Below, piece after piece: positions 3,238 to 26,160 of a stretch of 26,160 nucleotides of DNA; positions within the stretch are counted from its first letter, which is position 1, and each line of letters begins with the position of its first letter. Origin of the DNA: a virus. Taxonomy: Duplodnaviria > Heunggongvirae > Uroviricota > Caudoviricetes. Below the pieces are notes generated by a model that saw only the letters and a list, made by a program, of their open reading frames with translations, was not told the DNA's origin and did no database searches. Made by a program: the position numbers and the translations under genes. The stretch is taken from positions 1 through 26,160 of IMG/VR virus record IMGVR_UViG_2657245132_000008; one strand, written 5' to 3'.

Positions 3238-3509
3238 GTATTCGTATTGAAATTGGCGAACGTTATGTCGTTACCAGTGACAGCTTTCAGTTTATTCTCC
3301 ACGAGAAAAAGAGAGCGGAAAGCGGTAAAAACGCCGGTCAGGAATGGCTGGCGGTGGTTGGTTATTACCCGAAATTAGGCCAGCTCGTTTCCGGCCTGAT
3401 GCATCACGATATTCTGACCGGAAGCGCAAAATCTTTTGCTGATTTAAACGCGCAGGTTGAGCAACTCAGCAAGCGTTGTTCAGAGGCTTTTGGCTCATAT
3501 GGCCGTTAA
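3234..3509 (+). CDS. Early-operon small protein, P2 orf83-like (91 aa)
   Basis: ATG at 3234; overlaps the start of A. Confidence 0.5.
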   Translation: MSIRIEIGERYVVTSDSFQFILHEKKRAESGKNAGQEWLAVVGYYPKLGQLVSGLMHHDILTGSAKSFADLNAQVEQLSKRCSEAFGSYGR

Positions 3510-5775
3510 AGCCTCCGGGCGTTTTGTCCCTCCGTCAGCATTTACCGCAGGCACCGGTAAGGCGTTTACCGGTGCTTATGCATGGAACGCGCCACGCGAG
3601 GCTGTCGGGCGCGAAAGACCTCTTACACGTGACGAGATGCGTCAGGTGCAAGGTGTTTTATCCACGATTAACCGCCTGCCTTACTTTTTGCGCTCGCTGT
3701 TTACTTCACGCTATGACTACATCCGGCGCAATAAAAGCCCGGTGCACGGGTTTTATTTCCTCACATCTACTTTTCAGCGTCGTTTATGGCCGCGCATTGA
3801 GCGTGTGAATCAGCGCCATGAAATGAACACCGACGCGTCGTTGCTGTTTCTGGCAGAGCGTGACCACTATGCGCGCCTGCCGGGAATGAATGACAAGGAG
3901 CTGAAAAAGTTTGCCGCCCGTATCTCATCGCAGCTTTTCATGATGTATGAGGAACTCTGCGATGCATGGGTTGATGCGCATGGTGAAAAAGAATCGCTGT
4001 TTACGGATGAGGCGCAGGCTCACCTGTATGGTCATGTTGCTGGCGCTGCACGTGCTTTCAATATTTCCCCGCTCTACTGGAAAAAATACCGTAAAGGACA
4101 GATGACCACGAGGCAGGCATATTCTGCCATTGCCCGCCTGTTTAACGATGAGTGGTGGACTCATCAGCTTAAAGGCCAGCGTATGCGCTGGCATGAGGCG
4201 TTACTGATAGCTGTCGGGGAGGTCAATAAAGACCGTTCTCCTTATGCCAGTAAACACGCCATTCGTGATGTGCGTGCGCGCCGCCAGGCAAATCTGGAAT
4301 TTCTTAAATCGTGTGACCTTGAAAACAGGGAAACCGGCGAGCGCATCGACCTTATCAGTAAGGTGATGGGCAGTATTTCTAATCCTGAAATTCGCCGGAT
4401 GGAGCTGATGAACACCATTGCCGGTATTGAGCGTTACGCCGCCGCAGAGGGTGATGTGGGGATGTTTATCACGCTGACCGCGCCGTCAAAGTATCACCCG
4501 ACACGTCAGGTCGGAAAAGGCGAAAGTAAAACCGTTCAGCTTAATCACGGCTGGAACGATGAGGCATTTAATCCAAAGGATGCGCAGCGTTATCTCTGCC
4601 GTATCTGGAGCCTGATGCGCACGGCATTCAAGGATAATGATTTACAGGTCTACGGTTTGCGAGTCGTCGAGCCACACCACGACGGAACGCCGCACTGGCA
4701 TATGATGCTTTTTTGTCATCCACGCCAGCGTAACCAGATTATCGAAATCATGCGTCGCTATGCGCTCAAAGAGGATGGCGACGAAAGAGGAGCCGCGCGA
4801 AACCGTTTTCAGGCAAAACACCTTAACCGGGGCGGTGCTGCGGGATATATCGCGAAATACATTTCAAAAAACATCGACGGCTATGCACTGGATGGTCAGC
4901 TCGATAACGACACCGGCAGGCCGCTGAAAGACACTGCAGCGGCTGTTACCGCATGGGCGTCAACGTGGCGCATTCCGCAATTTAAAACGGTTGGCCTGCC
5001 GACAATGGGGGCTTACCGTGAACTACGCAAATTGCCTCGCGGCGTCAGCATTGCTGATGAGTTTGACGAGCGCGTCGAGGCTGCACGCGCCGCCGCAGAC
5101 AGTGGTGATTTTGCGCTGTATATCAGCGCGCAGGGCGGGGCAAATGTCCCGCGCGATTGTCAGACTGTCAGGGTCGCCCGTAGTCTGTCGGATGACGTTA
5201 ACGAGTACGAGGAAGAAGTCGAGAGAGTGGTCGGCATTTACGCGCCGCATCTCGGCGCGCGTCATATTCATATCACCAGAACGACGGACTGGCGCATTGT
5301 GCCGAAAGTTCCGGTCGTTGAGCCTTTGACTTTAAAAAGCGGCATCGCCGCGCCTCGGAGTCCTGTCAATAACTGTGGAAAGCTCACCGGTGGTGATACT
5401 TCGTTACCAGCTCCCACACCTTCTGAGCACGCCGCAGCAGTGCTTAATCTGGTTGATGACGGTGTCATCGAATGGAATGACCCGGAGGTCGTGAGGGCGC
5501 TCAGAGGTGCATTAAAACATGGCCTGAGAACACCAAATCGCCAGCAAAGAAACGGAAGCCCGTTAAAACCGCATGAAATGGCACCATCGGCCAGACTGAC
5601 CCGGTCGGAACGAATGCAAATTACCCGTATCCGCGTTGACCTTGCTCAGAACGGTATCAGGCCGCAGCGATGGGAGCTTGAGGCGCTGGCGCGTGGGGCA
5701 ACCGTAAATTATGACGGGAAAAAATTCACGTATCCGGTCGCTAATGAGTGGTCGGTTTTTTCAATTAAACAATAA
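3499..5775 (+). CDS. A: Replication initiation endonuclease gpA (rolling-circle HUH/Rep-type; 758 aa from ATG 3499; track start 3457 is TTG)
   Basis: HUH-type motif PHWHMMLF (~4690-4710) and the paired-tyrosine motif GYIAKYISKN (Tyr codons ~4846 and ~4858), as in the phiX174 A / P2 A rolling-circle initiators. Size matches P2 A (761 aa, from memory). Confidence 0.9.
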   Translation: MAVKASGRFVPPSAFTAGTGKAFTGAYAWNAPREAVGRERPLTRDEMRQVQGVLSTINRLPYFLRSLFTSRYDYIRRNKSPVHGFYFLTSTFQRRLWPRIERVNQRHEMNTDASLLFLAERDHYARLPGMNDKELKKFAARISSQLFMMYEELCDAWVDAHGEKESLFTDEAQAHLYGHVAGAARAFNISPLYWKKYRKGQMTTRQAYSAIARLFNDEWWTHQLKGQRMRWHEALLIAVGEVNKDRSPYASKHAIRDVRARRQANLEFLKSCDLENRETGERIDLISKVMGSISNPEIRRMELMNTIAGIERYAAAEGDVGMFITLTAPSKYHPTRQVGKGESKTVQLNHGWNDEAFNPKDAQRYLCRIWSLMRTAFKDNDLQVYGLRVVEPHHDGTPHWHMMLFCHPRQRNQIIEIMRRYALKEDGDERGAARNRFQAKHLNRGGAAGYIAKYISKNIDGYALDGQLDNDTGRPLKDTAAAVTAWASTWRIPQFKTVGLPTMGAYRELRKLPRGVSIADEFDERVEAARAAADSGDFALYISAQGGANVPRDCQTVRVARSLSDDVNEYEEEVERVVGIYAPHLGARHIHITRTTDWRIVPKVPVVEPLTLKSGIAAPRSPVNNCGKLTGGDTSLPAPTPSEHAAAVLNLVDDGVIEWNDPEVVRALRGALKHGLRTPNRQQRNGSPLKPHEMAPSARLTRSERMQITRIRVDLAQNGIRPQRWELEALARGATVNYDGKKFTYPVANEWSVFSIKQ

Positions 5776-5976: not shown

Positions 5977-6921
5977 ATGCCAACAGTAGTTTCACTTTTT
6001 TCTGGATGCGGTGGTTCCGATGCGGGGGTTTTGAGAGCCGGCTTTGATGTGCTTATGGCCAACGATATCTTGCCGTATGCGCGCGATGTTTATATTGCCA
6101 ATCATCCAGAAACTGATTACATATTAGGCAATATTGCTGATGTAACTACTTTTCCTAAATCTGATTTGCTGGTAGGTTGTTATCCATGTCAGGGATTCAG
6201 CCAGGGTGGTGCGCGTAAAGCCGATCGAAAAATTAATACTCTTTATTTAGAGTTTGCTAGAGCTTTAAACAATATAAAGCCTAAAGCTTTTATAGTAGAA
6301 AACGTGTCTGGTATGGTTAGAAAAAATTTTGAGCATTTGTTATCTGACCAGATCAGGGTTTTTACTGAAGCAGGTTATACTGTTTCCGCAAAAGTTTTAA
6401 ATGCGGCTGAATATGGAGTAGCGCAGGAAAGAAAAAGAATATTTATCGTAGGAATCCGTAATGATTTCAAAGTTAAGTACGAGTTCCCTCAGCCAACTCA
6501 TGGGCCAGCAACTGGCGTCAACTATGTTACTATTAAAGATGCTATAGGGCATTTACCTGAATGGCCAGAAGGTGAATTTTATGATATGGGATTCCATTGG
6601 TATTATATGTCTCGCAATCGTCGCCAGGATTGGGATCAAATTTCAAAGACAATAGTTGCTAATGCAAGGCATATGCCGTTGCATCCTGTCAGTCCTCCGA
6701 TGGAGAAAGTAAGAACTGATGAATGGAGATTTGTTGAGGATCGGAGAGCTCGCAGATTCAGTTTTCGAGAGGCAGCACTATTACAAGGGTTTGAGGATCT
6801 AGTGTTTCCAGAAACAAATGCTGCAAGTCTTGGCATGAAATACACGGTGGTTGGTAATGCAGTGCCTCCGCCGCTTTTTGAAGCTGTAACGAAGGCATTG
6901 CCAATAGAATTATGGGATTGA
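5977..6921 (+). CDS. C5-cytosine DNA methyltransferase (Dcm-like, 314 aa)
   Basis: Conserved C5-MTase motifs in canonical order: I FSGCGG (aa 8-13), IV PCQGFS (catalytic Cys71, codon ~6187-6189), VI ENVSGM, VIII QERKRIFIVG, IX RRFSFREAALLQGFED, X VVGNAV. A variable region between VIII and IX would be the target-recognition domain. Located in an AT-rich cargo island. Confidence 0.9.
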   Translation: MPTVVSLFSGCGGSDAGVLRAGFDVLMANDILPYARDVYIANHPETDYILGNIADVTTFPKSDLLVGCYPCQGFSQGGARKADRKINTLYLEFARALNNIKPKAFIVENVSGMVRKNFEHLLSDQIRVFTEAGYTVSAKVLNAAEYGVAQERKRIFIVGIRNDFKVKYEFPQPTHGPATGVNYVTIKDAIGHLPEWPEGEFYDMGFHWYYMSRNRRQDWDQISKTIVANARHMPLHPVSPPMEKVRTDEWRFVEDRRARRFSFREAALLQGFEDLVFPETNAASLGMKYTVVGNAVPPPLFEAVTKALPIELWD

Positions 6922-6928
6922 TAAGCTA

Positions 6929-7921
6929 TTAAGGCTCTGGATTTAATGTATAAAGCTCTTCCTCAAATTCGCGAAACCAATCAGAGGTAGTTATCGCTTC
7001 CCATTGGTTTGCCTTATCAAGTAGATATATGATTCTCAACCTATCTAATAATAATACTCCAGCGGTTGCGTGTGTGCTTACCCATTCGCCATTTGCTTCC
7101 CGATAGAAAACAGGCGTGAACATTGTTGATGGATGCTGGAACGCAATTTGGAAATAGGTGGTCAGTTTTAACACGTTAGCCTCTAATGTTTTGCTTGGCC
7201 ACCCTGTTTCTTGTGCACCACATTGACCAAGAATTCCATAGTTGCTAGTTTGACCATCAGGAAATTCCACTGTAGCAATTAGGTCAAACCCGGCATCACC
7301 AGATGTGGGAGCTCTATTTATTTCCCTTGTGTTTAAACTACAAACTCCAAGATCTTTTCCTAAAGTTTGTAGAGCTGTCCGAAGATTTGTTCCATAATAA
7401 TTTTGCCTATCATCGGAGTTAGCATCAAAAATTCTTACGGTGCCATGTGCAGGTAAGAGAGAAATCATTGCTACTTTACATACTCTGGCAAAGCTCTTTG
7501 CCCAACGTTGTGCTGCTCCTTTAATCGACTTAAAGGATCTAAGTCTAGAGCAGCAAAGAAGAAAAACATATATTCGTTGTTGTTGGTTTAGATTTTCTTT
7601 AATAATTATCTCATCACCTGAAATTATAAATGGATATATTTTGCCAAGAGCACTTTCTCTATATTCGAGTTGTGTCCAAACATCTTCGAGTTGCTCTTCA
7701 AAACGATCATTTCTCTCAGCGTCTCCATTAATTTCTTCTTCAGAATTACATTCTTCATCAATTTCTTCAACGCTTGTTATGCCGAATTTTCTTACTGAAT
7801 CTAAATCATTTTTATGTAGTGAGTTACGTCCGGTATAATTAATTACCGTGAGTAACTCGGCTAAATCTGCAAACAAATGAGGAGAGTTGGGATGCATAAC
7901 TCCTACTTCAAAAGTCATCAT
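6929..7921 (-). CDS. Cargo protein of unknown function (~330 aa), second gene of a two-gene operon; strongly acidic N-proximal tract
   Basis: Long ORF in AT-rich DNA, start ATG at 7921 or 7918 (track start 7924 is GTG) overlapping the stop of the upstream gene by ~14 nt, which implies translational coupling. AGAGG/GAGGTG RBS just upstream. No catalytic motif recognisable by eye. Confidence 0.75.
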   Translation of the reverse strand: MMTFEVGVMHPNSPHLFADLAELLTVINYTGRNSLHKNDLDSVRKFGITSVEEIDEECNSEEEINGDAERNDRFEEQLEDVWTQLEYRESALGKIYPFIISGDEIIIKENLNQQQRIYVFLLCCSRLRSFKSIKGAAQRWAKSFARVCKVAMISLLPAHGTVRIFDANSDDRQNYYGTNLRTALQTLGKDLGVCSLNTREINRAPTSGDAGFDLIATVEFPDGQTSNYGILGQCGAQETGWPSKTLEANVLKLTTYFQIAFQHPSTMFTPVFYREANGEWVSTHATAGVLLLDRLRIIYLLDKANQWEAITTSDWFREFEEELYTLNPEP

Positions 7922-9029
7922 CACCTCTGCTATTTTTCTCTGCTATTTCAGAACCTATAAGCTTAATATGTTTATTGATTCTTCGTGCTACTTCATGGGC
8001 CTGTCTATCATACTCTACCGTGGCAACCATGCCTGCTGCATCTATCAAAGCTGCTTCAACTTGATAAAGTAACTGGAGAAAGTCCTTAGTAATATCAGAT
8101 GTCAATTGATAGGCAACTGCGAGTGGAGCCCCCATTCGGAATTGCTCCAATGCCTTAGGGCTACTTACAACAGCAGCTAATTCTCTTAAATTACGTGATT
8201 CTCCTACACGAGTTTTTTTATCCTCGCCTTTTTTATATAACCATTCAGTTAGTTCTTTTATTTCTTTGTTCTTTAAACTCTTAGAATTGATGATAGGATG
8301 ACTTGGTATTGTGTCTCCATCGTCTTCGATTGAAACTCCGACAAACTGGCCTAACCGCTCATCAGCAAGTGCTGTTGATAATACTGAAAATTTAATCGTT
8401 TCTTCATCTAGCTTTTCAATACCATAAAAATCATTTTTTTTAATGATTTCATACACCGCTAAAGCGTCTAGGTTACGCTTGATATGATCCCTACGACTGC
8501 CAATAGCTCTGGCAACCTCATAGTAGCGTAGCATTGGATCCAGATTTGCATTGGTATAATCAAAAAGCTGTTTAATATATCGAGCTTTTGATAAGGGTTC
8601 CCATTGTTTGACACCAGTAATATGTCTGAAACCAAGGTACGGAAGAATCTCTTCTCTTGTTTGGCGCTCAATGACAGGAACACGATCGACCGTATGTTTT
8701 GCATTTGATGCAATTTCTCGTAGTCGAGCACTTGGATTTTCACATAGTGTCGGATCGCGTAATAATTTGACCGCGGATAGGCGACGGTTTCCTTCAACTA
8801 CAATGTACTTCCCCGGCGCTCCACTATCAGGAATGACAATCAATGGTTCTCCAGGGAAAAAACCATTTTCCGCAATAGCACTCATTAGGTCTTCGATAGA
8901 TGTTGAGGTTGCTATGTAGTTAATCATTCCCAATTGGTCACGAGACACGCCTTCAGGAAGTCTTGGGTTTTCTGTGTCAAGTTCCAAATCATCTAGCGGA
9001 ACATAAAGTATTTCTGAATCAGCAATCAT
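7908..9029 (-). CDS. ParB/Srx-fold (DUF262/DndB/GmrS-like) domain protein (373 aa from ATG 9029), first gene of the cargo operon
   Basis: ATG at 9029 preceded by GGAGA with 5-nt spacer (track start 9068 is TTG). N-terminal segment PLIVIPDSGAPGKYIVVEGNRRLSAVKLL has the [ED]G-x-[RQ]-R-L arginine motif of the ParB N-terminal domain superfamily (codons ~8781-8796). The remainder is predicted helical and of unknown function. Confidence 0.75.
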   Translation of the reverse strand: MIADSEILYVPLDDLELDTENPRLPEGVSRDQLGMINYIATSTSIEDLMSAIAENGFFPGEPLIVIPDSGAPGKYIVVEGNRRLSAVKLLRDPTLCENPSARLREIASNAKHTVDRVPVIERQTREEILPYLGFRHITGVKQWEPLSKARYIKQLFDYTNANLDPMLRYYEVARAIGSRRDHIKRNLDALAVYEIIKKNDFYGIEKLDEETIKFSVLSTALADERLGQFVGVSIEDDGDTIPSHPIINSKSLKNKEIKELTEWLYKKGEDKKTRVGESRNLRELAAVVSSPKALEQFRMGAPLAVAYQLTSDITKDFLQLLYQVEAALIDAAGMVATVEYDRQAHEVARRINKHIKLIGSEIAEKNSRGDDDF

Positions 9030-9234
9030 CTGGATCTCCGTTGAACATGTCCACGAGAAGGAGCACAAAGTTATTTCATAACATGCAATATACTCATTCT
9101 GTAGCCATAAATGAATTATTCATGATGTAAGATTCGCGTTGATGTGCGTGAATTCGCAAGTAATTATACAGCAAGGTTTGATTGGGTATCGTCAGCACCA
9201 GTGCGGTTCCAACGTACTCATGCAACTGCATTAA

Positions 9235-9258
9235 AACCGCCCCATGAAGCGGGCGGGC
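9235..9258 (-). terminator. Hairpin plus T-run reading leftward, abutting cos (candidate insulator between the late operon and the cargo operon)
   Basis: On the minus strand CCGCCCGCTTCATGGGGCGG is followed by TTTT (~6-bp GC stem). Confidence 0.35.
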
Positions 9259-9274
9259 GAGGCGGGGAAAGCAC
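9256..9274. other. cos cohesive-end sequence (P2-type 19-nt cos core)
   Basis: GGCGAGGCGGGGAAAGCAC at ~9256-9274 matches the P2 19-nt cohesive end as I recall it, and sits between the cargo island and Q exactly where P2 cos lies. GT-rich repeats follow at 9280-9410. Confidence 0.6.
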
Positions 9275-9416
9275 TGCGCGCTGGCGGTGGTGCTGATTTT
9301 ATTTTTTCAGCGTCTGAGCGCGTCGTGATGGCGTTTAGAGTGTGCGCCGGGGCGTTGGTGTGTCTGCGGGGTGTTTTGTGCGGTGGTGAGCGTTTGAGGG
9401 TGTGATGACGGGGTGT

Positions 9417-9438
9417 AAAAAAGCCGCCCGCAGGCGGC
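9417..9438 (-). terminator. Rho-independent terminator of the leftward Q-P operon
   Basis: Minus strand reads GCCGCC-TGCG-GGCGGC followed by TTTTTT, immediately 3' of the Q stop (9444). Confidence 0.6.
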
Positions 9439-9443
9439 GATGT

Positions 9444-10478
9444 TCAGCCGTTGTCAGTGTCCAGTGAGTAGTTTTTAAAGCGGATGACCTCCTGACCGAG
9501 CCAGCCGTTTATTTCCCGAATCCTGTCCTGTAACGGGATAAGCTCATTGCGGACAAAGACCTTTGCCACTTTCTCAATATCACCCAGCGACCCGACGTTC
9601 TCCGGCTTGCCGCCCATCAACTGAAAGGGGATGCGGTGCGCGTCCAGCAGGTCAGCGGCGCTGGCTTTTTTGATATTAAAAAAATCGTCCTTCGTTGCGA
9701 CTTCACTGAGCGGGATAATTTTAATGCCGTCGGCTTTCCCCTGTGGGGCATAGAGAAACAGATTTTTAAAGTTGTTGCGGCCTTTCGACTTCACCATGTT
9801 TTCGCGGAGCATTTCGATATCGTTGCGATCCTGCACGGCATCAGTGACGTACATGATGTATCCGGCATGTGCGCCGTTTTCGTAATACTTGCGGCGGAAC
9901 AGCGTGGCCGACTCATTCAGCCAGGCAGAGTTAAGGGCGCTGAGATATTCCGGCAGGCCGTACAACTCCTGATTAATATCCGGCTCCAGCAGGTGAAACA
10001 CGGAGCCGGGCGCGAAGGCTGTCGGTTCGTTGAAGGACGGCACCCACCAGTAAACATCCTCTTCCACCCCACGGCGGGTATATTTTGCCGGTGAGGTTTC
10101 CAGTCTGATGACCTTACCGGTGGTGCTGTAACGCTTTTCCAGAAACGCATTACCGAACACCAGAAAATCCAGCACAAAGCGGCTGAAATCCTGTTGTGAA
10201 AGCCACGGATGCGGGATAAATGTCGAGGCCAGAATATTACGTTTGACGTAAATCGGTGAGCTGTGATGTACGGCAGCACGCAGGCTTTTTGCCAGACCGG
10301 TAAAGCTGACCGGTGGCTCATACCATCTGCCGTTACTGATGCACTCGACGTAATCCAGAATGTCACGGCGGTCGAGTACCGGCACCGGCTCACCAAAGGT
10401 GAATGCCTCCATTTTCGGGGCGCTGGCGGTCATTGTTTTTGCCGCAGGTTGCGGTGTTTTCCCTTTTTTCTTGCTCAT
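9444..10478 (-). CDS. Q: Portal protein gpQ (344 aa)
   Basis: Size identical to P2 Q (344 aa, from memory); adjacent to cos; start codon overlaps the stop of P. Confidence 0.85.
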   Translation of the reverse strand: MSKKKGKTPQPAAKTMTASAPKMEAFTFGEPVPVLDRRDILDYVECISNGRWYEPPVSFTGLAKSLRAAVHHSSPIYVKRNILASTFIPHPWLSQQDFSRFVLDFLVFGNAFLEKRYSTTGKVIRLETSPAKYTRRGVEEDVYWWVPSFNEPTAFAPGSVFHLLEPDINQELYGLPEYLSALNSAWLNESATLFRRKYYENGAHAGYIMYVTDAVQDRNDIEMLRENMVKSKGRNNFKNLFLYAPQGKADGIKIIPLSEVATKDDFFNIKKASAADLLDAHRIPFQLMGGKPENVGSLGDIEKVAKVFVRNELIPLQDRIREINGWLGQEVIRFKNYSLDTDNG

Positions 10479-12250
10479 CAGTAAAACTCCAGAATGGTGG
10501 ATGTCAGCGGGGTGCTGATACCGGCGGTGAGTGGCTCATTTAACAGGGCGTGCATGGTCGCCCAGGCGAGGTCGGCGTGGCTGGCTTCCTCGCTGCGGCT
10601 GGCCTCATAGGTGGCACTGCGTCCGCTGCTGGTCATGGTCTTGCGGATAGCCATAAACGAGCTGGTGATGTCGGTGGCGCTGACGTCATATTCCAGACAG
10701 CCACGGCGGATAACGTCTTTTGCCTTGAGCACCATTGCGGTTTTCATTTCCGGCGTGTAGCGGATGTCGCGCGCGGCAGGATAGAACGAGCGCACGAGCT
10801 GGAACACGCCGACACCGAGGCCGGTGGCATCAATACCGATGTATTCGACGTTGTATTTTTCGGTGAGTTTGCGGATGGATTCCGCCTGGGTGGCAAAGTC
10901 CATGCCTTTCCACTGGTGACGCTCAAGTATTCTGAATTTGCCACCGGCAACCACCGGCGGTGCCAGTACCACGCATCCGGCGCTGTCGCCACGGTGTGAC
11001 GGGTCGTAACCAATCCAGACCGGGCGTGAGCCGAACGGATTGGCGGCAAACGGCGCATAGTCTTCCCATTCTTCCAGCGTGTCGACCATGCAGCGTTGCA
11101 ACTCCTCGAACGGGAACACCGACGCCTTGTCGTCAACAAATTCACACATGAACAGGTTTTTAAAATCGTCGGCGCTGTTTTCGCGTTTGAGCTGCTCAAT
11201 GTCGAACAGCGTGCAGCCGCCTTTCAGGGCGTCCTCAATGGTGACAATCTGCCGCCACTGGCCGTCCGCACAGAGAAGACCTCCGGCAAGTGCGTTATGA
11301 CTGACGTCGATTTCCACGCGTTCAGCGGCGCTGGCGCGTCCCCGGTTAAACAGTTCACCCGACCAGAACGGGTAGGCGTCGTGCGCCAGTGTGGACGGGG
11401 TGGAGAAATAGGTCGAACGCAGGTGACTCTGTGAGGCCATACCTGATGCCACCTTACGCAGTACCTGAAAATTCGGGATCCAGAAAATCTCATCGACGTA
11501 CAGGTCGCCGTTATGGCTCTGCGCGGTGTTGGAGTTGGTGCCGAGAAAAATCAGTTTTGCGCCGTTATTGCCCAGGACAATCGGGTCACCGGTCAGGTCA
11601 ACGTCAACCAGACGGGCAAAGGCGATGATGTATTCGCGGAACACATACGCCTGCGTTTTACTGGCCGACAGAAAAATCTGGTTATGGCCGGTTTTCAGGG
11701 CGCGCAGCAGCGCCTCGCGGGAAAAATAAAACGTTGCGCCAATCTGGCGGGATTTCAGGATATCGCGGATGCGGTGCTCAAGCCCGGCGCGATACCAGTG
11801 CAACTGATAGTCGAAAGACTGCTCAAAGAAAATCTGCTCCAGCTTTTCGATGGCTTCGTCGCTGAAAAAATTCTTTTTCGGTTTGCGACGCCCGCCTTTG
11901 TTGCGGTTAGCGACGTTCGGATTAAGGTCTGCCTCGTTGCCGGTCTGACTGTAACGGTTGACCCGTGCCAGCCGTTCAATCTGGCGTCCGAGCAGGTCAA
12001 TTTCCTTGAAGTCACCGCCGGTTTTCTGCGGTTTGATGATGAGCTGGGTCAGCCGCGCTTCCAGACTCATTTCGACACGGCTGATGGGGGCAACGCTGTC
12101 CCAGCCGTCGCGCTGTTTCCAGCTCTGCACCGTCGGGCGTTTCATCTGCAACATGGCGGCAATCTGCGGCACGGAAAACCCCTGCCAGTACAGCAGCGCC
12201 GCCTGACGACGCGGGTCGTGTAAAAGAGTGGTGTCTGTGGTGATGGTCAT
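10478..12250 (-). CDS. P: Terminase large subunit gpP (590 aa from ATG 12250)
   Basis: Internal ATG (MTITTD...) gives 590 aa, the size of P2 P (from memory); divergent from O as in P2. Confidence 0.85.
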   Translation of the reverse strand: MTITTDTTLLHDPRRQAALLYWQGFSVPQIAAMLQMKRPTVQSWKQRDGWDSVAPISRVEMSLEARLTQLIIKPQKTGGDFKEIDLLGRQIERLARVNRYSQTGNEADLNPNVANRNKGGRRKPKKNFFSDEAIEKLEQIFFEQSFDYQLHWYRAGLEHRIRDILKSRQIGATFYFSREALLRALKTGHNQIFLSASKTQAYVFREYIIAFARLVDVDLTGDPIVLGNNGAKLIFLGTNSNTAQSHNGDLYVDEIFWIPNFQVLRKVASGMASQSHLRSTYFSTPSTLAHDAYPFWSGELFNRGRASAAERVEIDVSHNALAGGLLCADGQWRQIVTIEDALKGGCTLFDIEQLKRENSADDFKNLFMCEFVDDKASVFPFEELQRCMVDTLEEWEDYAPFAANPFGSRPVWIGYDPSHRGDSAGCVVLAPPVVAGGKFRILERHQWKGMDFATQAESIRKLTEKYNVEYIGIDATGLGVGVFQLVRSFYPAARDIRYTPEMKTAMVLKAKDVIRRGCLEYDVSATDITSSFMAIRKTMTSSGRSATYEASRSEEASHADLAWATMHALLNEPLTAGISTPLTSTILEFY

Positions 12251-21122: not shown

Positions 21123-23741
21123 ATGAGCACGAAATTTAAAACCGTTATCACTACTGCCGGAGCCGCGAAGCTGGCAGCCGCCACTGTCCCCGGCGGGAAA
21201 AAAGTAAACCTGTCTGCAATGGCCGTGGGTGACGGTAATGGCAAATTACCGGTGCCGGATGCCGGTCAGACGAAACTGGTGCATGAGGTCTGGCGTCACG
21301 CTCTGAATAAAGTCAGCGTGGATAACAAGAATAAAAACTATATCGTGGCTGAACTGGTTGTACCGCCCGAAGTGGGCGGCTTCTGGATGCGTGAGCTTGG
21401 TCTGTATGACGATGCCGGAACACTGATTGCGGTATCCAACATGGCAGAAAGCTATAAGCCAGAACTGGCTGAAGGCTCCGGACGTGCGCAGACCTGCCGC
21501 ATGGTTATTATTCTCAGCAACGTGGCGTCCGTTGAGCTGAGTATTGATGCCAGCACAGTGATGGCGACGCAGGATTACGTCGATGACAAAATCGCAGAGC
21601 ATGAGCAGTCCCGCCGCCATCCTGACGCCACGCTGACAGAAAAAGGTTTTACTCAGTTAAGCAGTGCAACAAACAGCACCAGTGAGTCATTGGCGGCAAC
21701 GCCAAAAGCGGTCAAGGCAGCAAATGACAACGCAAATTCACGTCTGGCGAAAAATCAGAATGGTGCAGATATCCAGGATAAATCAGCTTTTCTGGACAAT
21801 GTTGGCGTTACCAGCCTGACGTTTATGAAAAACAACGGCGAAATGCCGGTTGATGCTGATCTGAATACATTTGGTCCCGTTAAGGCTTATCTGGGGATCT
21901 GGTCTAAAGCTACCTCAACTAACGCAACACTGGAGAAAAATTTCCCGGAAGATAATGCTGTCGGTGTGCTTGAGGTTTTTGCTGCCGGCAATTTTGCAGG
22001 CACGCAACGCTTTATCACGAGAGACGGCAATGTATACATGCGTAAACTCGCCAATAAGTGGAATGGTACTGATGGTCCATGGGGCGTATGGCGTCACACT
22101 CAATCAGCGACCCGCCCTTTGAGTACGACTATAGACCTGAATACGCTTGGAGCCGCCGAGCATCTTGGTTTATGGCATAACAGTAGCTCGGCTATAGCTT
22201 CATATGAACGTAATTATCCAGAGGAAGGCGGCTTTGCTCAGGGGACGCTTGAGATCCTCGAAGGCGGGAATTATGGAAGAACGCAACGTTATACCACTCG
22301 CCGTGGAAATATGTATGTCCGCTGCCTTGCGGCAAGCTGGGATGCATCAAATCCGCAGTGGGAACCGTGGTTAAGAGTCGGTCATCAGTCAGAGAGTCGT
22401 TATTACGACGGGGATTTGAATGATGTGACTTCACCAGGTATTTACAGCGTTACAGGTAAAGCGACCAATGGTCCAATACTGGACGGAAACGGCGTGACAG
22501 TCCTCGGTATTCTGGAAGTGTTGAGGCGCTTTGATGGTGTTAACGTATGGCAGCGTTATACAACTGCCGGAACAGGTGCAACCCTTAAAGGTCGCACGTT
22601 TGAGCGCGTTTTTACCGGCAGCTCATGGAGCGAATGGCGGGAAGTTTACACATCGTATTCACTTCCCCTGAATCTGGGTATCGGCGGTGCTGTGGCAAAG
22701 CTCACCAGTCTGGACTGGCAGACCTACGACTTTGTGCCGGGCAGTCTGATAACCGTTCGGCTTGATAACATGACCAACATTCCCGACGGTATGGACTGGG
22801 GCGTCATTGATGGCAACCTGATAAACATCGCAGTTGGTCCGAGTGATGATTCCGGTACGGGGCGCTCAATGCATGTATGGCGCAGCACTGTAAGTAAAGC
22901 GAACTACCGCTTTTTTATGGTGCGTATTTCAGGAAATCCGGGAAGTCGCACGATCACAACAAGACGAGTACCAATCATTGACGAAGCCCAGACATGGGCG
23001 GCGAAACAAACCTTCAGCGCCGGTCTTTCAGGCGAACTGTCCGGCAATGCTGCTACAGCAACAAAGCTGAAAACGGCAAGGACAATTAACGGCGTAACCT
23101 TTGACGGGACGAAAGATATTGAAGCGTTTCCGCCTGGTGTTCCGCTGCCGTGGCCATCAGATACACCACCTGCAGGCTATGCAATTATGCAGGGGCAGAC
23201 GTTTGATAAGGCTGCATATCCGAAACTGGCTATTGCCTATCCTTCTGGTGTTATTCCAGATATGCGCGGCTGGACAATCAAGGGCAAACCCGCCAGTGGG
23301 CGTGCCGTATTGTCACAGGAACAGGACGGGATTAAATCGCATACTCACAGCGCCAGTGCGTCAAATACGGATTTAGGGACGAAAACGACCAGTTCATTTG
23401 ATTACGGCACGAAGACAGTCAGTACGTTTAACTACGGAACAAAAACCACTAATACCACAGGTAACCATACACATACCATTTACAGAGGGAATGCCAATAC
23501 TAATGGTGAAACCGGTAAAACAGGCTTTGACAACCCATCGTTTAATGGCACATCAGGAGCTGCCGGGAATCATGCCCACACGGTAGATATTGGCGCACAT
23601 AATCATACGGTTGGTATTGGTGCACATTCACACACGGTTGCTATTGGCTCACACGGGCACTCTATTACCGTTAATGCTACAGGTAATACAGAAAACACCG
23701 TCAAAAACATCGCATTTAACTATATTGTGAGGCTTGCATAA
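21123..23741 (+). CDS. H: Tail fibre protein gpH (872 aa) with a mosaic, repeat-containing distal part
   Basis: Position after I. Conserved N-terminal attachment region, then three tandem ~75-aa modules and a His-rich C-terminal tip (GNHxHT / GAHxHTV repeats). Longer than P2 H (669 aa, from memory), consistent with host-range module exchange. Confidence 0.85.
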
Positions 23742-24319
23742 TGGCTTTCAGAATGAGTGCAGAAGCACAAACTATCCGCGTATTTAATTTACTTGATGGA
23801 ACCAATGAATTTATTGGGGAAAGTGACGCGTATATTCCGCCGCATACAGGTCTGCCTGCAAACAGTACAGATATTGCACCGCCTGATATTCCGGCGGGTT
23901 ATGCAGCCGTTTTCAATGCAGATGAAATGAAATGGGAACTGATGGAAGACCATCGCGGAAAGACCGTCTACGAAACGAAAACGGGAGCAGCCATTTATAT
24001 TTCTGAACTTGGCGTATTACCTCCAGACGTGACAGCTATTTCCCCGGAGGGGGATTATCAGAAATGGAACGGAAATGCGTGGGTGAATGATGAGAATGCA
24101 GAGCGTGATGCACTTGTCAGAGCGGCGGAGTCTCAGAAGAAAGAGCAGATTGCATATGCCGGTGAAATTATTGCCACGCTGCAGGATGCTGTCGATTTTG
24201 ATATGGCTACCGAGGAAGAAAAGTTAAGTCTGACACACTGGAAAAAATACCGTGTGCTACTGAATCGCGTTCAGCCGGAAGATGCTCCGGATATAGAATG
24301 GCCAGAAATGCCGCAATAA
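23741..24319 (+). CDS. G: Tail fibre assembly chaperone gpG (192 aa, Tfa-like)
   Basis: ATG overlaps the H stop (TAATG); position and size typical of P2 G / lambda Tfa-type chaperones. Confidence 0.8.
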
Positions 24320-24371: not shown

Positions 24372-24406
24372 AATCTGACAGTCCGCTCTGTGCCAAAAGC
24401 GGACAT
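24372..24406. repeat. Left copy of a 35-bp inverted repeat bracketing the Z/fun-position cargo gene; itself an internal hairpin
   Basis: AATCTGACAGTCCGCTCTGTGCCAAAAGCGGACAT; about 31/35 identical to the reverse complement of ~25565-25599. Internal 7-bp stem GTCCGCT / AGCGGAC. Confidence 0.6.
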
Positions 24407-24523
24407 GTCAAAGCGCAGAGTGAATGGCTAAGTCTAGCTCATTAGAAATGTTCGCTTCATGAAAATGGCTGCAGCAAGGATCTATCTCACTGCGGCCTCT
24501 TTACAATAACGAAATTTTGCGAG

Positions 24524-25279
24524 CTATTCCTTGGCCTCTTTATTTTTCTCGCCATCGCCAATGTAAAGAAGATAATCGTTTAAGGATATCCTTCCGGAGG
24601 GGCCGGTCCATGTTATCAATCCGTTCTCACGAAGATTAAATAATGCTTCCATGAACTCATTATCGTTAAAAGAATGATCCTCCGAGAACAGAATGTTCAT
24701 TTTTCTCAATAGTTCTTCCACTTTAATCTTTTCATATCGCCTTATCAGACTTAGTGCTTTACGACGCATTAAGATTGTAGGTACTGCTTGTGAACGAATG
24801 GTTTGTTGTATTCCACTATCAAGAACTTTCTTGATTTTACTCTCTAACTCTTTGATTTTAGTTTCATTATCTCCATTGGACTTAAGCTTTTCATCAACGA
24901 TGCAAATAATTTCCTGACTAATGCTGTTCTTGAGTTCGTTTATTTTTTCTTCATTGTTGAGAATCTCATCAGAGCTTCCTGCATGGGGTTTTTTCCATAT
25001 GTGCTGACGCATATCCGTTACCGTATCTCTCATCATAGAGAATGTATCTGAATATAACTTGTCAAATATTTTTTCCAGTCGTTCGACACTTGCCTGAATG
25101 TCTTTTGCTGCTTTAGTTGTCTCTTTAGAAGCCTCATTCGACATTTTATAAAAAACAAAAGAAAGCCAAATAGCCCCAATGGCGAGTACTAATGAGGCTA
25201 TTGTGGCAATAAAACCTATTATTGTTATTGCTGTATCTAATGTACCTGCTGCATCTGTGACTACTGTTTCTGCTGCCAT
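24524..25279 (-). CDS. Membrane-anchored coiled-coil protein of unknown function (251 aa)
   Basis: ATG at 25279 with GAGGA upstream. Hydrophobic N-terminal helix (TAITIIGFIATIASLVLAIGAIWLSFVFY), then a Lys/Glu-rich region with heptad-like periodicity (...INELKNSISQEI...KIKELESKIKKVL...). Single gene in AT-rich DNA on the strand opposite the tail genes. Confidence 0.75.
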   Translation of the reverse strand: MAAETVVTDAAGTLDTAITIIGFIATIASLVLAIGAIWLSFVFYKMSNEASKETTKAAKDIQASVERLEKIFDKLYSDTFSMMRDTVTDMRQHIWKKPHAGSSDEILNNEEKINELKNSISQEIICIVDEKLKSNGDNETKIKELESKIKKVLDSGIQQTIRSQAVPTILMRRKALSLIRRYEKIKVEELLRKMNILFSEDHSFNDNEFMEALFNLRENGLITWTGPSGRISLNDYLLYIGDGEKNKEAKE

Positions 25280-25564
25280 ATATCCTCAATATTTAACCAT
25301 ACAGGGTAGCGTGTTTTAACCGCGGGGAAGTCGGGGTGGTGACACCCTAGCCTTACCCCGATTCCAGAGTATTTATTTATCATACCATTGAAACTATTTA
25401 ATTTTATCGAAAATTTTGTCAGGGCGTGACTGAAAAGTCTTCAGCACGTCAAGCATATCGTCGCCGTTCAATTAACACTGAGCCTTTTCTTAGTGGGGTG
25501 GGCTGCGCAGTTGCGAGGTTATGCCCCAGTTCCTCACTACATTCTAATTAAGCCGGCCAACTAA

Positions 25565-25599
25565 ATGTCCGCTTTTCGCTCAAAGCAGACTGTCAGATT
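25565..25599. repeat. Right copy of the 35-bp inverted repeat bracketing the Z/fun-position cargo gene
   Basis: Reverse complement reads AATCTGACAGTCTGCTTTGAGCGAAAAGCGGACAT, about 31/35 identical to 24372-24406. Confidence 0.6.
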
Positions 25600-25653: not shown

Positions 25654-25690
25654 AAGGCAGGCGGGCTGATTGCCTGCCTTTTCTTTATCT
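25654..25690 (+). terminator. Strong rho-independent terminator (+ strand) upstream of FI
   Basis: Perfect 9-bp stem AAGGCAGGC / GCCTGCCTT with a 9-nt loop, followed by TTCTTTATCT. Confidence 0.6.
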
Positions 25691-25782: not shown

Positions 25783-26160
25783 ATGAGTGACTATCATCAC
25801 GGCGTGCAGGTGCTGGAGATTAACGACGGCACCCGCGTCATTTCCACCGTATCCACTGCCATTGTCGGCATGGTCTGCACGGCCAGCGATGCGGATGCGG
25901 AAACCTTCCCCCTCAATAAACCGGTGCTGATTACCAATGTGCAGAGCGCAATTGCAAAGGCCGGTAAAAAAGGCACGCTGGCGGCATCGTTGCAGGCCAT
26001 CGCCGACCAGTCAAAACCGGTCACCGTTGTCGTGCGTGTGGAAGATGGCACCGGTGACGACGAGGAAACGAAACTCGCGCAGACCGTTTCCAATATCATC
26101 GGCACCACCGACGAAAACGGTCAGTACACCGGACTAAAAGCCCTGCTGGCGGCGGAGTCG
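25783..26160 (+). CDS. FI: Tail sheath protein gpFI, 5' part only (first 126 codons; continues beyond the window)
   Basis: GGAG RBS then ATG at ~25783; open frame to the window end ([21 protein letters not shown]...). Position after G and the Z/fun cargo as in P2. Absent from the ORF track because no stop occurs inside the window. Confidence 0.8.

Follow-up and report, generated by a model that had tools for sequence, protein, structure and literature searches.

What does a single gene of unfamiliar sequence do for a P2-like prophage that carries it between tail genes G and FI? The question is raised by an open reading frame (ORF) of 251 residues in IMG/VR record IMGVR_UViG_2657245132_000008, of which positions 1 to 26,160 were analysed; this whole stretch of 26,160 nucleotides, called the window below, is a P2-like prophage of Escherichia coli, with its integrase gene at 1-1011 and with gpA, portal and tail genes present. 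The P2 locus and the variable cargo found there were reportedly already known from the work of Nilsson in 2004, and the hotspots of P2 are a proven source of anti-phage systems. The answer that best accounts for our findings, to which we give a probability of about 0.45, is that the gene would encode a single-protein, membrane-anchored anti-phage factor in which a conserved membrane effector is joined to a variable sensor, and that it would be a stand-alone lysogenic-conversion gene with its own promoter. The protein family is undescribed, and its architecture is unlike those of catalogued defence proteins. Because it is compact, has no partner and is present in several unrelated temperate phages, this cargo is easy to test, and its pattern of conservation predicts which half of the protein acts and which half senses.

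The cargo gene and its protein

The gene and the two backbone genes that flank it are as follows.

23741-24319, plus strand: gene G, tail-fibre assembly protein, flanking backbone (Caudo_TAP, E = 2e-39; RefSeq annotation of the identical locus)
24524-25279, minus strand: the cargo gene, ATG start, encoding the 251-residue, predicted membrane-anchored protein (full-length match to PHROG 36054)
25783-26160, plus strand: 5' part of gene FI, tail sheath, which starts at about 25783 and leaves the window (annotation of the 100%-identical E. coli R8 locus)

An AT-rich, minus-strand ORF of 251 residues had been placed between G and FI by a first-pass annotation, and we find it at exactly 24524-25279, with GAGGA, read from the sequence, 3 nucleotides 5' of its ATG. 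The G+C fraction of the ORF is 0.369 and that of the cassette in which it lies (see below) 0.395; both are lower than in the window (0.509) and in the adjoining tail genes (0.564). The FI stretch was also located in P2-like viral contigs by tblastn. That this is a real gene and no chance ORF follows from its 351 homologues at E <= 1e-3, from the 463 clusters at 50% identity (of 1.84 billion) that are matched by its N-terminal 100 residues, and from ratios of nonsynonymous to synonymous substitution rates (dN/dS) of 0.02-0.43, which indicate purifying selection in all parts of the protein.

In P2 itself the G-FI site is occupied by fun(Z), and the proposal that the cargo lies at the P2 Z/fun hotspot holds: P2, P2-EC58, P22H4 and the window share their DNA from the end of G to an inverted repeat, the left of the two described below, and diverge beyond it. 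Since the shared DNA ends at this repeat, the switch of cargo amounts to the replacement of a cassette at a fixed site. Variable cargo at the P2 locus is known, and in about one-fifth of P2-like prophages the P2 hotspots contain nothing but genes to which no function has been assigned (PMC13586616).

Whether the protein is a Fun homologue or something different had been left undecided. It is different: the best BLASTP match to Fun(Z) (AAD03288, 528 residues) has an E-value of 8.8 over 12 residues, and homology is rejected. The two genes are alike in their location between G and FI, their opposite-strand orientation, their character as non-essential lysogenic-conversion cargo and the backbone they share up to the inverted repeat, but Fun(Z) is twice as long and has no sequence similarity to the cargo protein. 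The phenotypes that serve as criteria for Fun(Z) are a block to the growth of phage T5 (annotation of the P2 record) and sensitivity to fluorodeoxyuridine (FUdR), and because the 251-residue protein is unrelated to Fun(Z) there is no pointer to T5 specifically. The Z-region ORF1 of P2-EC58 (CAD54907, 232 residues; AJ512683) resembles the cargo in being one ORF of comparable length on the opposite strand at this hotspot, between the same left and right inverted repeats, and it has an annotated promoter of its own; its sequence, however, is unrelated (best BLASTP E = 0.54) and it too is rejected as a homologue.

The whole protein matches PHROG 36054, a family of no known function (residues 1-251 against profile positions 1-251 of 251, E = 1.9e-173). 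No family of Pfam, NCBIfam or PADLOC was found above threshold in it, Pfam searches with 55 and with 133 family members gave only sub-threshold matches from helical sequence and scattered weak matches to winged helix-turn-helix (wHTH) domains, and PDB sequence profiles gave weak winged-helix and apolipoprotein-like matches. Among all these searches no clear homology to a characterized protein of unrelated function was found. The Gifsy protein GiPD474 is, according to the paper on it, an unrelated ParA-like ATPase.

Four parts can be distinguished in the protein.

25148-25228, minus strand: transmembrane (TM) helix, residues 18-44 (hydropathy maximum 2.41; predicted local distance difference test (pLDDT) score >90; 71% identity to the query among 55 diverse homologues)
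24986-25144, minus strand: amphipathic helix beside the membrane, residues 46-98 (...SVERLEKIFDKLYSDTFSMMRDTVTDMRQHIW; 80% identity to the query, 55 homologues)
24785-24985, minus strand: variable Lys/Glu-rich linker, residues 99-165 (helices at 105-133 and 139-163, pLDDT 47-63; 32% family identity; dN/dS 0.1-0.3)
24560-24784, minus strand: C-terminal winged-helix domain, residues 166-240 (order helix-strand-helix-helix-strand-strand, pLDDT about 80; 26% identity to the query)

The single N-terminal TM helix that had been proposed for this one-gene cargo is borne out by hydropathy, the only hydrophobic segment having a Kyte-Doolittle 19-residue maximum of 2.41 at residues 18-36, and a single ORF is present. 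On its N-terminal side the helix is flanked by no K/R and three D/E, and on its C-terminal side by four K/R; by the positive-inside rule, the K/R-free N-terminal tail and the K-rich stretch past the helix predict an N-out/C-in topology, with a short tail facing outwards and the bulk of the protein in the cytoplasm. One face of the TM helix consists of small residues that are invariant or nearly so (A25, S29, A33, G35/A36 and S40), which suggests helix-helix packing. In residues 46-98 the invariant positions are R67, L68, E69, F72, D73, L75, Y76, D78, T79, F80, M82, M83, T86, V87, D89, M90, R91, H93 and W95, and residues 58-96 are strongly amphipathic, with a hydrophobic moment of 0.467 as against 0.16 +/- 0.08 in shuffled sequences, 0.2% of which reach 0.467. 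The dN/dS is 0.02-0.04 for residues 18-98 and 0.1-0.43 elsewhere, and the TM and amphipathic segments hardly vary between Enterobacteria, Actinomycetota and Bacteroidota. This N-terminal module matches no Pfam family and no PDB sequence or sequence profile, and the 463 clusters that contain it are uniform in architecture, nearly all of them being 200-260 residues long with the module at the extreme N-terminus. An AlphaFold model built on a 55-sequence alignment (pLDDT 69; predicted template modelling (pTM) score 0.32) contains one long helix, residues 5-95, which spans the TM part.

The soluble part had been described as long, Lys/Glu-rich and coiled-coil-like. Its richness in Lys and Glu (46 of 206 residues) and its predicted helicity stand, but the heptad signal is weak, so that a canonical coiled coil is rejected as a description, and the last 75 residues or so are not a continuation of it but a globular winged-helix domain that had been missed. 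In the model the DSSP order of this domain is helix 168-182, strand 184-186, helix 187-197, helix 206-218, strand 222-224 and strand 236-239. Foldseek searches of PDB and BFVD were informative for this domain alone: nearly all of its top 50 PDB matches and of its viral matches are winged helices (probability 0.9-1.0, single E-values of about 1e-2), among them PerR, MarR, PadR, ROK and the cullin WHB domain. At the sequence level, profile comparison gives a weak match to the RPA32 C-terminal winged helix (E = 0.002); no curated winged-helix or HTH family of Pfam scored above its gathering score (MCM4_WHD, E = 8.6e-4, 19.8 bits against a cut-off of 24.4), and there are weak matches to MarR, HTH_24, HTH_27 and HTH_47 in scattered family members. 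Helix 3 of the winged helix is acidic (one K/R against four D/E), and the charge of the whole domain is close to neutral in this protein and in the family (mean net charge -0.6); in these respects it is closer to winged helices that bind protein than to those that bind DNA. In two members, P0084 and P0097, an OST-HTH/LOTUS domain stands in place of the winged helix.

Mobile contexts and hairpin-bounded cassettes

The cargo gene lies in a cassette with the following elements.

24372-24406, no strand: left inverted repeat, 'A-type' hairpin half-site with core GTCCGCTCTGTGCCAAAAGCGGAC at 24381-24404, forming the left end of the cassette (annotated as 'left inverted repeat' in AJ512683)
24467-24497, minus strand: candidate terminator of the cargo gene, an imperfect 8-bp stem GGCCGCAG/CTGCAGCC followed by ATTTTCA (region conserved in the Citrobacter koseri and Serratia oryzae copies)
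25379-25387, minus strand: candidate extended -10 promoter element TGGTATGAT, about 95 nucleotides 5' of the ATG (conserved in the E. coli, C. koseri (two prophages) and S. oryzae copies)
25565-25599, no strand: right inverted repeat, 'B-type' hairpin half-site with core at 25567-25590, forming the right end of the cassette (in P2-EC58, the 'right inverted repeat')

The two 35-nucleotide repeats are 89% complementary, and their hairpin core, GTCCGCT-N10-AGCGGAC, is expected 0.00 times by chance. Folded as DNA, the left repeat gives -10.7 kcal/mol (z = -5.2); the right repeat alone folds weakly (-3.7 kcal/mol, z = -0.5) and is terminator-like on the minus strand. The left repeat is the breakpoint of homology both with P2 and P2-EC58 and with a lambdoid copy of the cassette in E. 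coli 1506D011, in which 98% nucleotide identity to the window starts inside the left hairpin and stops inside the right one. So high an identity in a lambdoid prophage points directly to a recent exchange of the cassette between phages of the P2-like and lambdoid kinds. The non-coding parts of the cassette are conserved in C. koseri and S. oryzae, and on that ground we regard the gene, its promoter region and its untranslated regions (UTRs) as a self-contained mobile moron of about 1.2 kb. A scan for generic promoters found no more than a weak site overlapping the candidate -10 element, with no enrichment over shuffled sequences; a generic terminator scan likewise gave no enrichment, the candidate at 24467-24497 having gone unflagged because its loop is too long. 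An Rfam scan of the cassette returned nothing. On the minus strand, a conserved hairpin lies in the 5'UTR at 25300-25345; its sequence is GGGTG-TCAC-CACCC here and GGCTG-TCA-CAGCC in C. koseri, with a single compensatory pair between the two. In so small a sample, a role in regulating the cargo mRNA is no more than a possibility.

Close relatives of the gene recur in the following settings.

P2 G-FI hotspot: E. coli (the window and L064-L066)
Another site in a P2-like phage (L068)
Lambdoid Qin/Rac-like prophage, between replisome organiser/DUF977 genes and hokD: E. coli 1506D011 (L055, 6001-7217, NZ_CP149559; 98% nucleotide identity)
Tailed prophage, between TerS and TerL: Serratia marcescens, lone homologue
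Ends of two different prophages, beside dinI: C. koseri, lone homologue
Island with primase, AlpA and integrase: S. oryzae
Four independent filamentous (inovirus-type) prophages, beside the repressor or the replication module: Alcaligenes, Pectobacterium, Citrobacter braakii and Providencia (L009, L012, L060/L061 and L062)
IncF plasmids, beside an ISNCY transposase: Klebsiella, lone homologue

Members with at least about 48% identity are accessory genes of mobile elements. The same cargo is found in Peduovirus P22H4 and phage 9W at 96% nucleotide identity, and it is rare, occurring in 10 of 5,426 complete E. coli genomes and in 7 of 2.9 million viral contigs; the family as a whole is sporadic across many phyla, a pattern scan of 185,579 species genomes giving 36 loci. 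No partner gene is conserved across 40 loci, in keeping with the description of the locus as single-gene cargo. In the C. braakii filamentous prophage the homologue is co-oriented with an HTH_3 repressor, and in L061 it sits between two tandem inovirus copies. A homologue with 59% identity over residues 16-124 is present in a Methanoregula sp. metagenome-assembled genome (NZ_JBAZQA010000012, 9938-10651, on a 100-kb contig), either through cross-domain transfer or as a binning artefact.

Hairpins of this type are not confined to the window. In another viral contig (L067, IMGVR_UViG_2740892219_000010, 7652-10721) three single-gene cassettes stand in tandem, with imperfect palindromic junctions of about 66 nucleotides between them, each composed of an A-type hairpin (..GTCCGCTnnTGGCACnnAGCGGAC), a 12-16-nucleotide spacer and a B-type hairpin (GTCCGCTGTGAGCGAnnAnCGGAC); one of these junctions folds into just one long hairpin (-20.6 kcal/mol, z = -6.4). 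The repeats of the window correspond to the two halves of one such junction, with a single cassette between them. The motif GTCCGCT-N3-GGCAC-N2-AGCGGAC occurs in at least 119 viral contigs (L071-L189), and 87 among the matches listed are not beside P2 tail genes. From these, 67 inter-hairpin intervals yielded 59 clusters of cargo ORFs, a single ORF being present in 48 of the intervals. The Pfam domains of this cargo are dominated by those of conflict systems (DarT, Macro, RelA_SpoT, HEPN_RiboL-PSP, HEPN_MAE_28990, TIR_2, GmrSD_N, pPIWI-associated nucleases, AAA_13, HAD and DUF4365). Of the 32 Pfam families matched, the 25 most frequent include none that belongs to a virion gene. The largest cluster comprises 10 copies of a 271-residue protein without a Pfam match (e.g. 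L161, 8696-9508).

These arrays invite comparison with integrons, whose gene cassettes are likewise arranged in tandem and separated by imperfect palindromes, the attC sites. Hairpin cassettes, however, occur in either orientation and apparently have their own promoters, as indicated for the window cassette by its conserved extended -10 element, and no integron integrase was found in 7 kb around the tandem array of L067 or in the window, where the sole integrase is that of the P2-type prophage (1-1011). We thus reject an identity with integron gene cassettes, given the missing integron integrase and the conserved upstream extended -10, while noting that the junctions are still imperfect palindromes. 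Morons are promoter-gene-terminator units in temperate phages, and the cassette resembles them in that it forms a transcription unit complete in itself, departs in base composition from its surroundings and sits between late operons; the two-hairpin junction of about 66 nucleotides common to P2-like and lambdoid phages, in contrast, lies outside the definition of a moron. Hairpin cassettes with DarTG, toxSAS, HEPN, TIR and GmrSD cargo, together with the tandem arrays, suggest a sequence-level vehicle for rapid swaps of defence genes between unrelated phages, and the exchange element is possibly general across phages. The two main papers on the P2 hotspots make no mention of these hairpins, and the mechanism of defence-gene exchange is stated as unresolved in the 2026 hotspot paper.

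Candidate functions

The anti-phage proposal may be put in mechanistic terms as follows. The invariant TM and amphipathic module would be the effector, self-associating in the inner membrane and either perturbing membrane integrity, as in abortive infection, or obstructing genome entry; the variable winged helix, positioned next to the membrane on its inner side, would be the sensor and would bind a phage component. Between these two modes we prefer triggered membrane damage to a specific block of entry, since conservation of the effector across phyla suggests an intrinsic activity and not the binding of a host- or phage-specific channel; and the acidity of the 'recognition' helix makes protein likelier than DNA as the component sensed. 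An anti-phage role is the best supported of those considered in view of the hotspot, the moron architecture, the occurrence in at least four unrelated phage types and in plasmids, the position beside the repressor in filamentous prophages and the defence-rich type of cassette. The first-pass annotation had put the protein down as a candidate exclusion or abortive-infection factor, and the occurrence of the gene on its own in such diverse phages and on plasmids, together with its type of cassette, lends that candidacy indirect support. Consistent with an anti-phage role are the minus-strand orientation of the gene, opposing the late operons, its AT-rich composition and conserved upstream region with an extended -10; an identity of 71-80% in residues 18-98 as against 26-32% elsewhere; and the exchange of the C-terminal module for OST-HTH in some members.

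Known systems offer partial parallels. HK97 gp15, P22 SieA, T4 Imm and Pf PfsE are membrane-anchored superinfection-exclusion proteins of temperate or lytic phages. They are small inner-membrane proteins that act alone and are expressed from the prophage or early, and several are accessory morons; they differ from the cargo protein in being small and without a known cytoplasmic winged helix, and their membrane parts are not known to be conserved across phyla. No homology between them and the 251-residue protein was detectable by comparison through PHROGs only. The TM effectors of cyclic-oligonucleotide-based antiphage signalling systems (CBASS), retrons and Rst systems have been discussed, and such systems sit in P2/P4 hotspots (PMC9122126). 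They too couple a conserved membrane effector to a variable sensing module, but usually have a separate sensor or enzyme gene and in many cases several TM helices, whereas the cargo is one polypeptide with one TM helix, no partner and no PADLOC match. Literature searches on Fun(Z) and on similar exclusion proteins that combine a membrane segment with a winged helix turned up nothing relevant.

Several findings weigh against an anti-phage role. The best match in PADLOC-DB 2.0.0, to PD-T4-6 (E = 0.021), lies in the helical linker and is not significant, and no paper names the accessions of the family proteins. It is the pattern of conservation alone that suggests which part would be effector and which sensor, and charge bias alone that gives the topology, and the quality of the monomer model is moderate (pLDDT 69, pTM 0.32). 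No positive selection was detected in the C-terminal domain, the presumed sensor, where dN/dS is below 0.45. The association with defence cassettes is imperfect, since some inter-hairpin intervals carry TerC, glyoxalase or integrase genes. Finally, distant members outside Enterobacterales are flanked mainly by metabolic and housekeeping genes: their neighbours include 2 integrases in 147 and a handful of defence-type matches, and within two genes on either side of 40 homologues, most of them distant, metabolic genes prevail and PADLOC matches are few. Such neighbourhoods fit a housekeeping or stress role at least as well.

Such a role is the alternative that survives best, although we consider it unlikely. 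The protein would on this account be a factor of membrane or stress physiology that alters envelope homeostasis or host fitness, comparable with small stress proteins composed of a TM and an amphipathic helix, and the phage-borne copies would be fitness-enhancing lysogenic-conversion genes. The distant homologues that occur in many phyla as single chromosomal genes among housekeeping and metabolic genes (for example between EF-P and EarP/UvrC in Limnohabitans) speak for it, but a sporadic distribution without synteny is atypical of a housekeeping function, and the close branch is consistently on mobile elements, in a type of cassette dominated by defence cargo. Purifying selection on the N-terminal module is extreme and gives no hint of an arms race, and there is no PADLOC match, both points in favour of this account; the weak apolipoprotein, phasin, perilipin and DUF948-type matches in the helical part of some members, which might also be cited in its favour, are sub-threshold noise from helical, coiled-coil-like sequence.

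Classical superinfection exclusion, in which entry of the genome would be blocked at the inner membrane and the cell left unharmed through binding of an ejected phage protein or of a host DNA-translocation component, seems to us more improbable again. The predicted inner-membrane anchor with a cytoplasmic winged helix of protein-binding type close to the membrane would suit it, as would carriage by several types of prophage, including filamentous ones in which the gene is beside the repressor, and the site is that of P2 Fun(Z), which according to the P2 annotation blocks T5. A TM segment and adjoining helix that are nearly invariant from Enterobacteria to Actinomycetota and Bacteroidota are nevertheless hard to square with a taxon-specific target, and there is no match to a PHROG annotated as superinfection exclusion. 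PHROG comparisons with superinfection-exclusion, holin and spanin functions gave no significant match, the only one of this kind being an Rz-like spanin at E = 1.2, and no superinfection-exclusion family was listed. A holin, spanin or other lysis role is rejected, as the gene lies outside the lysis cassette, is present in filamentous phages and has no significant PHROG match to such proteins.

The idea that the winged helix or OST-HTH domain would hold DNA or RNA at the membrane, as an anchor for an episome or replicative form or by sequestering a transcript or regulator, draws on the fold matches to the DNA-binding wHTH regulators PerR, MarR and PadR, on the replacement of the winged helix in some members by OST-HTH/LOTUS, generally regarded as an RNA-binding domain, and on the fourfold recurrence in filamentous phages, which replicate and assemble at the membrane, but it is highly improbable given that helix 3 is acidic (which also makes a DNA-binding regulator less likely) and the domain about neutral, that the best sequence-level matches are to protein-binding winged helices (RPA32C, MCM-WH), and that an integrated P2 prophage has no evident need of a membrane tether.

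If the anti-phage proposal is taken further, the protein would found a new family of single-polypeptide immune proteins, in which the TM and amphipathic module is a previously unrecognised effector triggered by a winged-helix or OST-HTH sensor, and the junction of about 66 nucleotides would be a recombination 'linker' for swaps of defence cassettes among temperate coliphages, P2-like and lambdoid; we offer this extension tentatively and think it doubtful as a whole. Were the 'linker' reading true, the hairpin would be a sequence tag for further defence genes and could be used in their discovery.

Other features of the window

The window has a second hotspot, between gpA (3457-5775) and the portal gene (9444-10478), in which cargo occupies 5977-9068.

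5977-6921, plus strand: C5 cytosine DNA methylase (PF00145, E = 5e-65)
6929-7924, minus strand: 331-residue protein (no match in Pfam or PADLOC)
7908-9068, minus strand: 386-residue protein (PADLOC PD-Lambda-5_A, E = 6.6e-29)
21123-23741, plus strand: tail fibre H (Phage_tail_fib and Collar domains), listed here with the cargo of the second hotspot as the gene preceding G

The two minus-strand genes at 7908-9068 and 6929-7924 probably make up a defence system of two genes similar to PD-lambda-5, in which the second component has diverged. With such a pair at its other hotspot the prophage may be viewed as an armed element, a point in favour of the anti-phage reading of the G-FI cargo.

In L064-L066 the same cargo (99% amino acid identity) is accompanied by a different G (44% identity over 68 residues to that of the window) and by divergent C-terminal parts of H, so that cargo and receptor-binding modules recombine independently here; the same independence has been noted for this hotspot in the iLund4u preprint. 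Between the right inverted repeat and the promoter region of FI, the conserved backbone contains a strong terminator-like hairpin on the plus strand at 25654-25680 (an 11-bp stem, then a T-run); it would stop transcription that continues along the plus strand past the H-G operon or that runs antisense to the cargo gene.

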